DNA from: Escherichia phage JSE
DNA length: 64,000 nucleotides
Sequence record: EU863408
Direction: 5' to 3' (one strand)
Made by a program: the position numbers and the translations under genes. Shown piece after piece: positions 16,880-59,234 of this stretch. Every line of letters begins with the position of its first letter. Position 1 is the stretch's first letter. Below the pieces are notes generated by a model. That model did not search any database. It was given only the letters and a program-made list of their open reading frames with translations, and was not told the origin of the DNA.

Positions 16880-16912
16880 TTGATACTCCTTAGTAGTTCG
16901 TTTCTGTATGGG

Positions 16913-16944
16913 TGTATTATGATATACACCCTCTGTTATGTCAA
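16913..16944 (-). promoter_or_regulatory. PeSL-type early promoter (variant)
   Basis: TTGACA, 17-nt spacer, CATAAT; inverted repeat GGGTGTAT..ATACACCC. Confidence 0.45.
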
Positions 16945-21097: not shown

Positions 21098-21143
21098 AAT
21101 TTGATTCTCCTAGTTAGAAAGTGTATCTCGTTTCGACGGGTGT

Positions 21144-21172
21144 ATTATGCTATACACCCGATCCATTGTCAA
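21144..21172 (-). promoter_or_regulatory. PeSL-type early promoter
   Basis: TTGACA, 17 nt, CATAAT; palindrome GGGTGTATAGCATAATACACCC. Confidence 0.5.
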
Positions 21173-22537: not shown

Positions 22538-22572
22538 GGGAGTATCTTACTACTCCCTTTAATCATTGTCAA
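22538..22572 (-). promoter_or_regulatory. PeSL-type early promoter
   Basis: TTGACA, 17 nt, TAAGAT within palindrome GGGAGTAGTAAGATACTCCC. Confidence 0.5.
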
Positions 22573-33076: not shown

Positions 33077-33112
33077 GGGGGTATCTTACTACCCCCCGCT
33101 ATTCAGTGTCAA
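33077..33112 (-). promoter_or_regulatory. PeSL-type early promoter
   Basis: TTGACA, 17 nt, TAAGAT within a GC palindrome. Confidence 0.5.
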
Positions 33113-51689: not shown

Positions 51690-54599
51690 ATGGCAGATTT
51701 AAACAGAATCCAATTTAAACGTACTAGCACGAAAGGTCGTAAACCTGATGCTACTACAATGACGCAAGGTGAACTTGCTATCAACCTGCATGATTATTAT
51801 TTGTTTACAAAAAATGACTCTGGTTCTATTATTAACTTAAGCTGTCCTCCGATCTATGACCGCGATGTTATCATGGCTGGTAAAGTAAAGGGAGATTATT
51901 ACATTTTAGGTAAAACCGCCAATTATCTTGAAGATCAGACAGCGAGAGACCTTAACCGTTTTGGAGCATTCCGTACCAACGGTCTAGATGGATTTTTAGA
52001 TTTGACCTTGCATGTTCCTCATTCTGCTGGCGTTCAACATGGTCGAGGATTTACTTTCCGTTATGCGACTGGCGGATCTCGTGTTGAAACATATGGGTAT
52101 AATGCACAGGGACAAAAAGCATTTAGCTATAAAATGTATCATGAAGGTGATAAACCAACTCCAGGAGAACTGAACGTTTATAGCAAACAAGAAGTAGATA
52201 GAATGTTTGTTAAAAACGTTAAACTTTCTACAGGTTCTGGTGATATCGTTGACGGTTATTTTAAATTAGCGACTGCGATGATTCCACAAGACGGTCGTAG
52301 TGTATTTTTCCGTATTCATGGTGGTAACGGATATAACATTACTGCATACGATCAAGTTGATATTGTAGAAATTGTTATTCGCAGTGGAAATAATCGTCCT
52401 AAAGGTGTTAACGTTATTGCATACCGCCGAAATACAAACAAAGCATTTGATGTTTTGGCTGTTAATACTTCTGGTGATAACTATGATATCTACGTGAAAT
52501 ATCAGCGTTACACTGATAACGTTATTGTTGAATTTGGTAAAAGTGTTGATGTTAATCTGGTAGTCCATGACGTTCCAGACTTTGTTGTTGATCGTCCTGT
52601 TGGCGATAATGTTATTGGCGGTCGCGCGGTAACTCTTTTCAACACCGAAAACAAACGAGGTGTGTTGAGTTTTGACGACAATACACAAAACAGCTATGAT
52701 ATTGTTCACATGAGTAATGATAAAGGTACTGGACGAAAATATATTCGTAAATTCCGTAGTAACTATAATGAAATGATCTGGCATGAGACGGTTCAAGGTA
52801 ACGTATATCGTTTAGCTACTGGAACTACCGACGCAAACGAAGTTCTCAAAATTACCGACCGCACGTTGCAAACTGGCAATGCTGTTTTTGACGGTGGTAA
52901 TAATAATGTTCGTTTACATCGTAAAACCGGAAAAAGTAACTATCTGGAATATTATGATGCCCGTGACGGAGCAAATAAACGTCAGGGATATATTGGGTAT
53001 GGCGATGCCACAACTAACCAGTTGTCAATTATTAACGAACTCTCCGAAGGTAATAACTCGATTTTCTTTAACGAGACAGGTCAAATTTCACTTAACGTAG
53101 GAAAGACAAAAATTGTTCATAGCAACGGACAATATATTTCTACCAACGCCGATAACTATCGTATAATTTATGGTAATTATGGAACATTCTGGCGAAATGA
53201 TAGCGTTAAACTTTATCTCATGTCCACTGCCGAAAATGATAAATGGGGTACTTGGAATAGCTATCGACCATTCATTTACAACCTAACCAGCGGCGATGTT
53301 CAATTGGGTGGTGATGGTAACGAATCGGCATTAACGTTAGAATGTGCTTCTCGTGCCGCTCGCTTTAGTAATGACGTTTACATTAAGAAAGGGCTTTTGA
53401 CTTTCGACGCTGGGCGATTAGGATCTCGCGATTATATTAGATTTAATCATTGGGGCGATAGCAATAACGGTCGCGATAACATCCTACAGATTGAAGACAG
53501 TCAGGGCGCACATTTTACCACTGAACGTGCTATGGGTACTGGTAACATAACAGCACGTTTTAAAGGCTTTGTTCGTGTTGAGTCTGGTGAGATTGCATTT
53601 GATGCTAATCGGGGGTCGCAGTCTCAATTTACCTTACACACATGGGGTAACGAGCAACGCAAACAGGTTTTTGAATGTAAGGATGCTACAAGTTATCACT
53701 GGTATACTGAACGTACTCAGGGTGGCACTGGACCTATTCTGTTCGTTATGGCGGGTAGTCTAAACGTTGGTAGCAATATCACAACAACTGGTCCGGATAT
53801 TACGTTTAAACGCGCTGGCAATAAGCACATCTGGTTTAGAGATCCAAACGGCTTAGAGTTAGGCTTGATGTACTGCGATGATGCTGGTGCTATTCGCTTC
53901 CGTGGTCAGAAACAAGCCCAGGCGTGGAAATTTGCAGATAAAATGATCCAGTTGGAATCTGGCACTGTATCCGGTGGCGGTAATGGCCTGATTCGTGGTG
54001 AAGTTGCTGGCGGTAGTTGGGCTAGCTGGCGTGACCGTGCTGCTGGCCTTATGGTTGGGTGTCCTCAATCAACCAATTCCGCTCATAACATCTGGAAAGC
54101 TACTCATTGGGGTCAATATCACATTGCAGCAATGGGTGTACATGTTCCTAACGGTACTATCGGTGATGCTATAGCTCGCCTAAACGTTCATGACGCCAAC
54201 TTTGACTTTAGCGCCTCCGGTGACATGTCGGCAGGGCGTAACGGTTCGTTTAACGATGTTTATATTCGTTCTGATGCTCGCCTTAAAATCAATAAGGAAG
54301 AGTATAAGGAGAATGCCACTGATAAAGTTAATCGCTTGACTGTGTACACCTACGATAAGGTTAAATCTTTAACTGACCGTAGTGTTATCGCCCATGAAGT
54401 TGGTATTATTGCTCAGGATCTTGAGAAAGAATTGCCGGAAGCAGTAACAACTTCTAAGGTCGGCGACCCAGATAAACCAGAAGAGATCTTAACAATTTCT
54501 AACTCTGCTGTCAACGCTCTTTTAATTAAGGCGTTTCAGGAAATGAGCGAAGAATTGAAAGCCGTTAAAGCTGAACTAGCGGAACTTAAAAAGAATTAA
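51690..54599 (+). CDS. 37: long tail fiber distal subunit gp37 with C-terminal intramolecular chaperone-like domain
   Basis: N-terminus MADLNRIQFKR..GELAINL resembles T4 gp37; C-terminal segment with SDARLK motif and terminal coiled coil. Confidence 0.8.
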   Translation: MADLNRIQFKRTSTKGRKPDATTMTQGELAINLHDYYLFTKNDSGSIINLSCPPIYDRDVIMAGKVKGDYYILGKTANYLEDQTARDLNRFGAFRTNGLDGFLDLTLHVPHSAGVQHGRGFTFRYATGGSRVETYGYNAQGQKAFSYKMYHEGDKPTPGELNVYSKQEVDRMFVKNVKLSTGSGDIVDGYFKLATAMIPQDGRSVFFRIHGGNGYNITAYDQVDIVEIVIRSGNNRPKGVNVIAYRRNTNKAFDVLAVNTSGDNYDIYVKYQRYTDNVIVEFGKSVDVNLVVHDVPDFVVDRPVGDNVIGGRAVTLFNTENKRGVLSFDDNTQNSYDIVHMSNDKGTGRKYIRKFRSNYNEMIWHETVQGNVYRLATGTTDANEVLKITDRTLQTGNAVFDGGNNNVRLHRKTGKSNYLEYYDARDGANKRQGYIGYGDATTNQLSIINELSEGNNSIFFNETGQISLNVGKTKIVHSNGQYISTNADNYRIIYGNYGTFWRNDSVKLYLMSTAENDKWGTWNSYRPFIYNLTSGDVQLGGDGNESALTLECASRAARFSNDVYIKKGLLTFDAGRLGSRDYIRFNHWGDSNNGRDNILQIEDSQGAHFTTERAMGTGNITARFKGFVRVESGEIAFDANRGSQSQFTLHTWGNEQRKQVFECKDATSYHWYTERTQGGTGPILFVMAGSLNVGSNITTTGPDITFKRAGNKHIWFRDPNGLELGLMYCDDAGAIRFRGQKQAQAWKFADKMIQLESGTVSGGGNGLIRGEVAGGSWASWRDRAAGLMVGCPQSTNSAHNIWKATHWGQYHIAAMGVHVPNGTIGDAIARLNVHDANFDFSASGDMSAGRNGSFNDVYIRSDARLKINKEEYKENATDKVNRLTVYTYDKVKSLTDRSVIAHEVGIIAQDLEKELPEAVTTSKVGDPDKPEEILTISNSAVNALLIKAFQEMSEELKAVKAELAELKKN

Positions 54600-55574: not shown

Positions 55575-55610
55575 AGGGGAAGCCTTTAGGCCTCCCCTTC
55601 TTTTTATTGG
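55575..55610. terminator. terminator-like hairpin after holin t
   Basis: GGGGAAGCC-loop-GGCCTCCCC followed by TTCTTTTTATT. Confidence 0.45.
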
Positions 55611-55852
55611 CGCATAGAAGCCCCTGAATCACATTTTGACGCTGTATGATGAAAACAGGTAGCGTACCAGTCATCGGCTTGTTTGTCTTCGTCAGAAAAC
55701 GCGTAATTGCGTTGTATACCGTTTTCTACTTTGACCAGTGCAATAGCTGTTTCTGGAAGATCAATCAATCGGACAAAATCACCATCTTCCCACTCTACAC
55801 GAGCAATATCATAGCCCATCTCAAAGTATACAATCGCTTGTTCTAATTTCAT
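55604..55852 (-). CDS. hypothetical protein (82 aa)
   Basis: ORF only. Confidence 0.4.
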   Translation of the reverse strand: MKLEQAIVYFEMGYDIARVEWEDGDFVRLIDLPETAIALVKVENGIQRNYAFSDEDKQADDWYATCFHHTASKCDSGASMRQ

Positions 55853-57566: not shown

Positions 57567-57851
57567 TTATTTTCGGTTGTACTTCTGCCACTTTCGGTAA
57601 TACTGTTTGTAAAATTGTTTTACGTTTTCACCATCTTTACTATACATGTTATCTACCATCAAGTCAATAAGACCTCCCGGTGTCTGGTAGTTCCCCGCTC
57701 GGATAAGTTCTTTAATTAAAGTGTCCTGATGATCTTTGTATACTACGTTAATGATGGTCTTTTCTGCTTTCTTCGTCCCGACCATCCGGTGATTAGCTTT
57801 CATCGCATCCCACCAATCTTTTGTGATCTTCATGTTATTAAATTTCATCAC
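57567..57851 (-). CDS. hypothetical protein (94 aa)
   Basis: ORF only. Confidence 0.45.
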   Translation of the reverse strand: MMKFNNMKITKDWWDAMKANHRMVGTKKAEKTIINVVYKDHQDTLIKELIRAGNYQTPGGLIDLMVDNMYSKDGENVKQFYKQYYRKWQKYNRK

Positions 57852-58666
57852 TTAACCTCTTCGCAAGTATATCTCCACTCAATACGTTTTTCGTTTCCAC
57901 CGCGCTCAGCATCATAGATATGACGGAATGTCAATTTGCTTTCATCATCAACAAGTTTATTTCCTTCGAATTTAGCGCCATGTTTTGCAGAGAATATCAA
58001 TCCGATTTTATAATCTTCGCTGTTGATCATAGTTCCGTTATCTGTGATTTCAAAATCCATAACTACAGGGTCTTGCATTGTGCTGGAGATCATGATTTTA
58101 GCAATGTCACCTCTCTTAGAAACTTGAATTTTTGCATTTCGTTTCATAATATCATCATCTTCTACACTCATTCCATTGATTGTAGTAATTTTAACAACTT
58201 TCGGGCAAATGTAGGAAAACGTGGTTTTCTTCGGATTAATTACTTCCGGCTGTTTCTCTTCAACCTTCGGTTCTTCCACCACTTTTTCTTCCTGTTTCGG
58301 TTGTTCTTCTTCAACCTTCGCAGAAGTCTCTGAATCGCTTTCTGGTGCTGTTTCTTCTTTAGGTAATACATTCATCAAGTTTTGAATTTGAGCGTTATAT
58401 ACAGCCTCCAGTGGCTGAATCTGCCCGATATTGATCATTGTATCACGAACAGTTTTATTCCAGTTGCGTTGCTCTTGTTTCAGAGACGGATCAATCTTAA
58501 CAGCCTTAACATACACCTCATGAAGTTTAGAGTCCAGTGCGGAGATTGACTCATTAGCACAAATAAACTTCTCTGATTTGGTAGTAGCTTTAGCGCAATC
58601 AAAGGACGCAGCGTTAGCACCGAAAGCAGTAGCAGAAAGAACGATAGCAGCGATAATGTTTTTCAT
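57848..58666 (-). CDS. secreted protein with DUF1311/LprI-like N-terminal domain
   Basis: Signal peptide (..FGANA/AS); SFDCAKATTKSEKFIC...L.D..L..VY and W-containing segment typical of DUF1311; Glu/Lys-rich linker. Confidence 0.5.
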   Translation of the reverse strand: MKNIIAAIVLSATAFGANAASFDCAKATTKSEKFICANESISALDSKLHEVYVKAVKIDPSLKQEQRNWNKTVRDTMINIGQIQPLEAVYNAQIQNLMNVLPKEETAPESDSETSAKVEEEQPKQEEKVVEEPKVEEKQPEVINPKKTTFSYICPKVVKITTINGMSVEDDDIMKRNAKIQVSKRGDIAKIMISSTMQDPVVMDFEITDNGTMINSEDYKIGLIFSAKHGAKFEGNKLVDDESKLTFRHIYDAERGGNEKRIEWRYTCEEVK

Positions 58667-58700
58667 AATATATTCCTCAGTGTTTTGTCTTGATGGGAGT

Positions 58701-58729
58701 ATCTTACTACTCCCTTAATCCGGTGTCAA
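58701..58729 (-). promoter_or_regulatory. PeSL-type early promoter
   Basis: TTGACA, 17 nt, TAAGAT within palindrome GGGAGTAGTAAGATACTCCC. Confidence 0.5.
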
Positions 58730-59176: not shown

Positions 59177-59205
59177 GTGATTCTCCTTTCGTTTGGTATG
59201 GGAGT

Positions 59206-59234
59206 ATAATACTACTCCCATTTCTTTACGTCAA
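59206..59234 (-). promoter_or_regulatory. PeSL-type early promoter
   Basis: TTGACG, 17 nt, TATTAT within palindrome GGGAGTAGTATTATACTCCC. Confidence 0.45.

Follow-up and report, generated by a model that had tools for sequence, protein, structure and literature searches.

A predicted periplasmic DUF1311 protein with exchangeable barrel domains, shared by Krischvirus phages and Escherichia coli prophages, as a candidate exclusion factor

Spackle is one of the two superinfection-exclusion genes known in bacteriophage T4. Its product is made early, exported and disulfide-bonded, and in the periplasm it inhibits the tail lysozyme gp5 while sparing the endolysin (PMC7677548). In the DUF1311 (PF07007) family, conserved cysteines form two disulfides (PMC7933661). 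The family member LprI of Mycobacterium tuberculosis joins a DUF1311 domain to an MliC domain, to which a study of ScwA credits the lysozyme inhibition; ScwA itself, a periplasmic Salmonella protein made of DUF1311 only, has no role in lysozyme resistance, raises the levels of the lytic transglycosylase MltD and causes lysis upon prolonged overproduction (PMC7933661). Other DUF1311 proteins with a signal peptide act, as shown or predicted, as cognate or orphan periplasmic immunity proteins against cell-wall effectors of type VI secretion systems (T6SS), and in E. coli O157 the DUF1311 protein Etsi4 rescues cells from Etse4 toxicity (PMC12981562, PMC9796082, PMC12135965). Here we describe a DUF1311 gene in a 64,000-nucleotide stretch of Escherichia phage JSE (record EU863408; the whole stretch is called the window below). 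Its predicted product joins an almost invariant N-terminal part to a highly variable barrel, it is found throughout the genus Krischvirus and at the ends of E. coli prophages, and we tentatively propose that it serves as a periplasmic exclusion or protection factor.

The open reading frame (ORF; Table 1) is, by its conservation, a real gene and no chance ORF, because the ratio of nonsynonymous to synonymous substitution rates (dN/dS, estimated by the Nei-Gojobori method) in its N-terminal domain is 0-0.13 at dS 0.06-0.23 across phage and prophage copies and because the protein matches PHROG 14799 over its full length (E 1e-141). A reading made from the sequence only had described the product as a secreted protein with a DUF1311 domain, a Glu/Lys-rich linker and a separate C-terminal domain, and each part of that architecture is borne out. 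The signal peptide combines a single basic residue with a hydrophobic core of 13 residues (peak Kyte-Doolittle value 2.47 over 11 residues) and an AxA site, and signal peptidase I is predicted to cleave after Ala19, between MKNIIAAIVLSATAFGANA and ASFDC. This junction is kept in Krischvirus, Marfavirus, Aeromonas T4-like phages and lambdoid prophages. There is no lipobox at GANA/ASFDC, where the residues before the cysteine are Ser, Phe and Asp.

Pfam places PF07007 on residues 24-76 (24.4 bits against a gathering threshold of 22; E 3.9e-5), and the match is partial, covering profile positions 1-71 of 106 and leaving the last third of the profile unmatched. In an AlphaFold2 model of the window protein, built on a 16-sequence alignment, four helices span residues 30-98 (predicted local distance difference test, pLDDT, about 65), the fourth of them at 83-98, although the profile match stops at position 71. 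The modelled domain has the helical-bundle fold of solved DUF1311 proteins and matches 3gi7_B and 6ar7_A. Its only cysteines are Cys24 and Cys36; Met or Ile stands at the position of the second cysteine pair of the family, which many other phage DUF1311 homologues retain. Two more cysteines, 154 and 268, lie in the barrel and bring the whole protein to four, and DsbA would be expected to form the disulfides Cys24-Cys36 and Cys154-Cys268. Distant phage homologues reach 22.4-32 bits against PF07007, and among bacteria a profile search with the N-domain yielded only 21 short matches, none with an informative architecture. The DUF1311 assignment is in itself ordinary, as automatic annotation already gives it for the prophage copies.

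The linker carries 15 Asp/Glu, 8 Lys/Arg and 6 Pro residues, has pLDDT values below 50 (the AlphaFold2 disordered stretch is 104-145), contains no tandem DNA repeats and differs in length between alleles, from about 26 to 46 residues. The C-domain, of a type that we call T1, is modelled as all-beta over residues 149-270 (pLDDT about 80; nine strands by DSSP), and its first and last strands carry Cys154 and Cys268, respectively, both invariant across all barrel types. In its predicted fold it resembles the eight-stranded antiparallel beta-barrel of MliC and PliC, and a second model, of the RB49-type protein, is again a barrel, matching PhiA (7.5), PliC (7.1) and Neisseria ACP (6.9). The resemblance is of note because M. 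tuberculosis LprI combines DUF1311 with MliC (PMC7933661). Homology to MliC/PliC is unproven, because generic and designed barrels score equally well against the C-domain model (b10 9.0, Cap15 8.9, fatty-acid-binding proteins and lipocalins about 8); Foldseek against the PDB gave weak generic barrel matches only (E >2e-3).

Membership of the barrel in the MliC family (PF09864) was rejected, since every sequence-level test was negative and only the resemblance in fold is left. With a cut-off of E<=10, Pfam matched neither the whole protein nor any of 10 barrel variants to MliC, a sequence-profile search of the PDB with the barrel returned nothing relevant, and hhalign gave the barrel a probability of 0.5% against an enterobacterial MliC profile, itself a shallow one (71-86% identical sequences). 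The SGxxY motif, which binds the lysozyme active site in MliC/PliC (PMC8334348), is not found in the barrel: the corresponding T1 hairpin reads HGAKF, HGKTY or FGLKF, without Ser, and the other types are unrelated there. We therefore describe the domain as MliC/PliC-like in its modelled fold and not as a member of that family. A phmmer search of 1.84 billion representatives found no relatives of the C-domain outside the phage clade, returning clade members and a spurious repeat protein (P0021).

With PF07007 proteins such as Pseudomonas putida PP0307 (PDB 3GI7), the phage protein shares secretion, a helical fold and the motif C-x11-C ... LD..L..Y ... QR.W..R. It differs from them in the partial profile match and the missing second cysteine pair, and in its layout, with the domain at the very start of the mature protein and an orphan barrel attached to it by a long disordered linker. 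The module order is that of M. tuberculosis LprI (Rv1541c), in which an exported DUF1311 domain likewise precedes a small barrel of eight strands. Unlike that lipoprotein, however, the phage protein has neither lipobox nor lipid anchor, and its barrel has no detectable sequence relationship to MliC, lacks SGxxY and is swappable between alleles. At about 125 residues the barrel is also larger than MliC, PliC, PhiA and Neisseria ACP (85-100 residues), and it has no profile similarity to any of them. The likeness to T4 Spackle (gp61.3) is that of an early gene in a T4-type phage encoding a small periplasmic protein with a signal peptide and disulfide bonds, predicted ones in our case, whereas sequence and fold are unrelated: Spackle is a single 75-residue helical bundle and highly conserved, and the phage protein has a variable head. 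The T6SS DUF1311 immunity proteins likewise combine a signal peptide with DUF1311; they are periplasmic, neutralise cell-wall toxins that act in the periplasm and also occur as orphan genes kept for protection. The phage protein differs from them in its phage or prophage context and its additional linker and barrel, and no adjacent cognate effector or orphan immunity array in a T6SS island is present at the window locus or the prophage loci.

The gene is present in 57 of 57 GenBank Krischvirus genomes, with N-domain identity of at least 97%, and is thus universal in the genus although situated in a hyperplastic region. Across 20 aligned close homologues, residues 1-106 are almost invariant and the linker varies in length, while only C154, G165 and C268 are invariant in the barrel. 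There are at least four barrel types, T1 being that of the window and T4 that of RB49. Subtypes of T1 go down to 37% identity, and T2, T3 and T4 are 27-38% identical to one another. Homology of T1 to T2-T4 was rejected (hhalign probability 0.5%), as only the first strand, F.Y.C...DG, aligns. The window itself apart, our GenBank search found the T1 barrel in no deposited Krischvirus genome; typing was by one concatenated query, with which T2-T4 cross-match and blur as types while the absence of T1 is clear. Otherwise T1 is seen only in Krischvirus-like metagenome contigs of the same synteny and in prophages.

Substitution rates separate the two halves of the protein. Between the window and the homologue P0002, dS is 0.18 and dN 0 in the N-domain, against dS 1.15 and dN 0.20 (omega 0.18) in the barrel; overall, the C-domain cassettes show dS of about 1.2-1.8 compared with 0.18-0.2 in the N-domain, at an omega of 0.14-0.23 that marks purifying selection. 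Because dS is high in the barrel and low in the N-domain, the barrels are not simply evolving fast. On these rates they are old cassettes, each conserved in its own right and attached to an N-domain that has been homogenised, a pattern of selection that points to a specificity determinant kept as ancient alleles. Two features that the barrel type might track were rejected. One is the gp37 fibre, since RB49 and KFS-EC have identical barrels and gp37 proteins only 42% identical, and the other is the gp5 lysozyme domain, which is 97.7-100% identical across the genus. The gp37 long tail fibre of the window (51690-54599, plus strand) is itself a mosaic, 73% identical to RB49 overall and from 42% to 100% in blocks of 50 residues; its identity to KFS-EC is only 42%, although the KFS-EC flanks are the closest overall.

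In RB49 and phi1, PeSLs (early promoters with a stem-loop) act as strong sigma-70-like early promoters and as terminators and mediate modular shuffling (PMC2839356). Such an element lies immediately upstream of the studied gene, which makes the gene part of a PeSL cassette. It consists of a -35 box TTGACA (58729-58724), a 17-nucleotide spacer and a -10 box TAAGAT (58706-58701), and it overlaps the inverted repeat GGGAGTA-N6-TACTCCC. The pattern TTGAC-N(8-13)-GGGNGTA-N(4-8)-TACNCCC occurs six times in the window, where shuffled sequences predict 0. This sigma-70 early promoter probably drives the gene. Like the PeSL-flanked ORFan cassettes of RB49 and phi1, the gene sits in the hyperplastic early block directly behind a PeSL; unlike typical PeSL ORFans, it occurs in every genome of the genus and also exchanges internally, in the linker, and not only between PeSLs. 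The six copies of the motif are all on the minus strand (16910-16944, 21138-21172, 22538-22572, 33077-33112, 58695-58729 and 59200-59234), and a 71-nucleotide repeat family at 58673, 59178 and 59680, spaced by about 500 nucleotides, reflects the same elements.

Chromosomal copies occur in 26 of 5,426 complete E. coli genomes. In every case examined the copy is the last gene of a prophage inserted in hicB, beside the attachment site, with phage genes and hicAB as its neighbours. At least three barrel types are found at this site, and in IMG/VR, too, the gene lies terminally on prophage contigs about 35 kb in length. A terminal gene next to the attachment site occupies the classic position of a lysogenic-conversion or exclusion gene. 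The prophage copy appears to stand alone transcriptionally, with a promoter-like site of its own and a predicted intrinsic terminator.

The N-terminal parts of the prophage and Krischvirus genes are 94-95% identical at the nucleotide level, and BLAST similarity to prophage copies with a different barrel type ends inside the linker, at nucleotide 381 or 415 of the gene. The region 5' of the prophage copies is unlike the Krischvirus upstream region. In two prophage types (H2 and DEC5A), however, the 63 nucleotides after the stop codon are the truncated 5' end of the Krischvirus downstream gene. Because this scar of the downstream gene follows the prophage copies, the comparison indicates that the gene was probably captured by prophages from a Krischvirus-like virulent phage. 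The scar and the N-domain would then provide two homology arms for later exchange of barrels. The remnant (about 63 nucleotides, MKFNSMKITKDWWDAMKANHQ...) lies at 9772-9840 of L009 and 9781-9860 of L010, both E. coli hicB prophages.

We favour, without calling it probable, the reading that the gene encodes a periplasmic protection or superinfection-exclusion factor composed of a constant module and an exchangeable specificity module. The soluble two-module protein would reside in the periplasm; infected cells would make it within the first minutes, and lysogens would make it from the free-standing prophage copy. It would bind and neutralise something that enters the periplasm of a cell already infected or lysogenic, protecting the envelope and the resident phage, with superinfection exclusion or resistance to lysis from without as the outcome, in the manner of T4 Spackle or of the DUF1311-type T6SS immunity proteins. 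What all alleles have in common would fall to the constant DUF1311 domain, which would dock to a partner that is itself conserved, for instance a domain of muramidase type or a factor associated with peptidoglycan. Specificity would reside in the barrel as the head of the protein, and differences among its targets would account for the retention of several ancient alleles; rival phages might supply such targets with their tail lysozymes or tail tips, or bacteria with peptidoglycan-hydrolase toxins. Early and autonomous expression argues for this role, given the PeSL upstream of the phage gene and the promoter-like site, terminator and terminal position of the prophage copy. The transfer from virulent phage to prophages, seen in the N-part identity and the 63-nucleotide remnant, agrees with a function of benefit to whatever phage is resident or to its host.

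The niche of Spackle also seems vacant in the genus, and we count this in favour of an exclusion role. Spackle homologues are found in 927 phage records, and when T4 Sp, confirmed to be T4 orf 61.3, was run with phmmer on every ORF of RB49 1-95 kb and of the window, which corresponds to about 100-164 kb, no match fell below E 0.09. The gp5 lysozyme is present and as invariant as the DUF1311 domain. In RB49, gp5 (L015 20150-21952) keeps its Phage_lysozyme domain, and the endolysin RB49p102 (L015 9719-10108) is a 129-residue Peptidase_M15_4 enzyme and not a T4 e-type lysozyme. The tail lysozyme is thus the only muramidase found in the parts of the genus examined, and since the endolysin is an M15 peptidase, a muramidase inhibitor would spare the phage's own lysis. 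With its lysozyme domain almost identical whatever the barrel type, gp5 would at most be the partner of DUF1311 and not of the barrel. Where T4 has sp/61.3, the region between genes 61 and 41 of RB49 (L011 10023-14091) carries dc1, dc2 and small ORFs; from uvsX to gene 43 (L011 14461-18471) no imm or gene 42 is annotated, by an annotation check at the syntenic site only, and dmd lies elsewhere in the RB49 genome.

Several observations weigh against this proposal. The functional evidence is circumstantial and comes entirely by context and analogy. The gp5 lysozyme domain, being invariant, cannot drive the diversity of the barrels, and no variable partner was identified, the barrel type being independent of the long-tail-fibre type. 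Scans with PADLOC and NCBIfam gave no meaningful matches, of which the PADLOC null also counts on this side. In other phages and prophages at least 12 unrelated C-domains, none of a known inhibitor family, are joined to the DUF1311 handle, which may therefore do no more than localise or oligomerise unrelated cargo in a generic way. Finally, Spackle and DUF1311 proteins are no simple alternatives, since Klebsiella phage Marfa encodes one of the latter alongside an annotated Spackle. In Marfa, Spackle (L005 1644-1925) and a 252-residue protein with a signal peptide, DUF1311 and a helical head (L005 4001-4759) lie 2 kb apart in the same early block, and the two functions would therefore coexist in some T4-like phages.

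Other roles can be set against the same evidence. ScwA, the only DUF1311-only periplasmic protein of enterobacteria to have been studied, shares both compartment and domain with the phage protein, and its effects on MltD and, when overproduced, on cell integrity (PMC7933661) suggest a modulator that binds or stabilises the host's own peptidoglycan enzymes in the periplasm, such as lytic transglycosylases, and thereby prepares the sacculus for the phage to develop or be released, instead of warding off an incoming attack. We consider this unlikely, as the architecture of ScwA differs (its DUF1311 is at the C-terminus), the conservation of host peptidoglycan enzymes leaves several ancient barrel alleles unexplained, and retention as a terminal prophage gene fits protection better than a function in the lytic cycle. 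Masking of a receptor is quite unlikely as well. By this account the barrel would bind the periplasmic face of an outer-membrane receptor and block adsorption or injection, as T5 Llp or phi80 Cor do, with different barrels matching different receptors. For T5 Llp, masking from within the periplasm is an established mechanism (PMC9586334), and the predicted periplasmic location, early and prophage expression, allelic diversity and the position of gp37 about 3 kb from the gene would all suit it. The barrel, however, does not follow the phage's own fibre, as the identical barrels and divergent gp37 of RB49 and KFS-EC show; the phage protein is no lipoprotein, unlike Llp and Cor, and its gene is not adjacent to the fibre gene.

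The sequence-only reading had drawn on LprI to suggest that the protein could protect against lysozyme, set the timing of lysis or act in superinfection exclusion. That link to LprI proves a weak guide to function, and among its options exclusion or envelope protection fits best, on circumstantial grounds. For lysozyme protection, the name 'lysozyme inhibitor' comes from LprI, whose activity is credited to the very domain that has no sequence counterpart here, and DUF1311-only ScwA has no such role; the automatic name 'lysozyme inhibitor LprI family protein' is accordingly not evidence of lysozyme inhibition. A true LprI/MliC-type inhibitor of animal C-type lysozyme, protecting gut E. coli, infected or lysogenic, with a damaged outer membrane, is very unlikely: besides the failed Pfam and hhalign comparisons with MliC, the critical Ser of SGxxY is absent and the motif is not conserved between types, a single conserved target would need no four unrelated alleles, and PhiA, which lacks SGxxY, is not a lysozyme inhibitor (PMC8334348). 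Least probable of all is a regulator of lysis timing that would act on the periplasmic domain of holin T or on the endolysin to delay or set lysis. The predicted location would allow it, t is about 2.3 kb away, and T4 RI is a precedent for a secreted early protein that controls lysis. RB49, however, carries its own rI, the endolysin is an M15 peptidase, and the gene lies behind an early PeSL promoter in the leftward early block, seven opposite-strand ORFs from t. It also persists alone at the end of prophages with unrelated lysis cassettes, and the conserved holin T offers no reason for barrel diversity.

The layout of the studied protein, with a signal peptide, an AASFDC-type DUF1311 domain, a Pro/Glu/Lys linker and an unrelated cysteine-paired C-domain, is widespread in phages and prophages. 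It is carried by Klebsiella Marfavirus, Aeromonas T4-like phages, lambdoid ev099 and many IMG/VR prophages, and amounts to 61 distinct proteins with at least 12 head types. Among 26 heads scanned, Pfam recognised DUF4431 in four and tRNA_anti-like (OB fold) in one, and found no MliC, Ivy or PliG. IMG/VR prophage contigs in which the AASFDC-type N-domain is joined to other heads include L073, L074, L077, L078, L079 and L083, among others, and one protein, L064, has a linker of some 40 residues built as (PQ)n.

A wider reading, which we regard as doubtful, takes these proteins as a phage-borne, polymorphic system of periplasmic immunity or exclusion in which a constant handle carries interchangeable heads, each directed against a different incoming weapon and traded between virulent T4-type phages and prophages. 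Recombination between homology arms, one in the conserved N-domain and one in the downstream gene, would swap the heads, and prophages would turn the virulent phage's own exclusion gene against it. We found no prior study of the phage protein in the literature on LprI/DUF1311, superinfection exclusion and RB49 spackle, and PMC2839356 does not mention it. In the literature searched, four features are not described: the LprI-like two-module layout with an orphan barrel, the combination of an invariant handle with ancient cassettes, the absence of T1 from deposited genomes of the genus, and the scar-marked transfer from virulent phage to hicB prophages.

The window belongs to Krischvirus, a genus of RB49-like T4-type myoviruses; the flanks of the gene are 92-98% identical to KFS-EC, RB49, Phi1 and others, and between holin gene t and topoisomerase gene 52 the gene order is that of RB49, whose orthologue, RB49p262, is annotated as a 'hypothetical protein'. 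Around the gene lie small phage early ORFs, topoisomerase gp52 and the holin. The stop codon of the studied gene overlaps the start codon of the small downstream gene (TGATG), which suggests that the two are translationally coupled. In the same early block, beside holin gene t, an ORF of 82 residues (55604-55852, minus strand) matches PF11195 (Tad2-like, Thoeris anti-defence 2) with 27.9 bits against a cut-off of 25 (E 3.4e-6), and the syntenic gene in related contigs has the same weak match; its product is possibly an anti-Thoeris sponge.

Table 1. Features of the locus in window coordinates
Feature	Position	Strand	Basis
Studied gene, 272 aa, ATG start	57848..58666	minus	ORF coordinates, exactly the interval of the sequence-only reading
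Signal peptide, residues 1-19 (MKNIIAAIVLSATAFGANA)	58610..58666	minus	hydrophobicity and AxA site
DUF1311 (PF07007) four-helix domain, residues 20-101, with Cys24 and Cys36	58364..58609	minus	
Disordered Glu/Lys/Pro-rich linker, residues 102-147	58226..58363	minus	composition, pLDDT
C-domain, residues 148-272, T1 cassette type	57851..58225	minus	predicted closed antiparallel beta-barrel
Putative ribosome-binding site GAGGAA	58673..58678	minus	7 nt 5' of ATG, read from sequence
PeSL-type early promoter with stem-loop	58695..58729	minus	promoter scan, 10/12 matches
Small downstream gene, about 93 aa	57567..57848	minus	ORF list and sequence

Overall, a gene that is universal in its genus, predicted to be expressed early and exported, half invariant and half hypervariable, and repeatedly captured by prophages is a concrete candidate for an exclusion factor. 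If the proposal is true, it would add a modular, allele-swapping class to the periplasmic exclusion and immunity proteins and would give a first function to the DUF1311 handle that is fused to so many unrelated heads. It would, in addition, provide a case, marked by a molecular scar, of genes passing from virulent into temperate phages.

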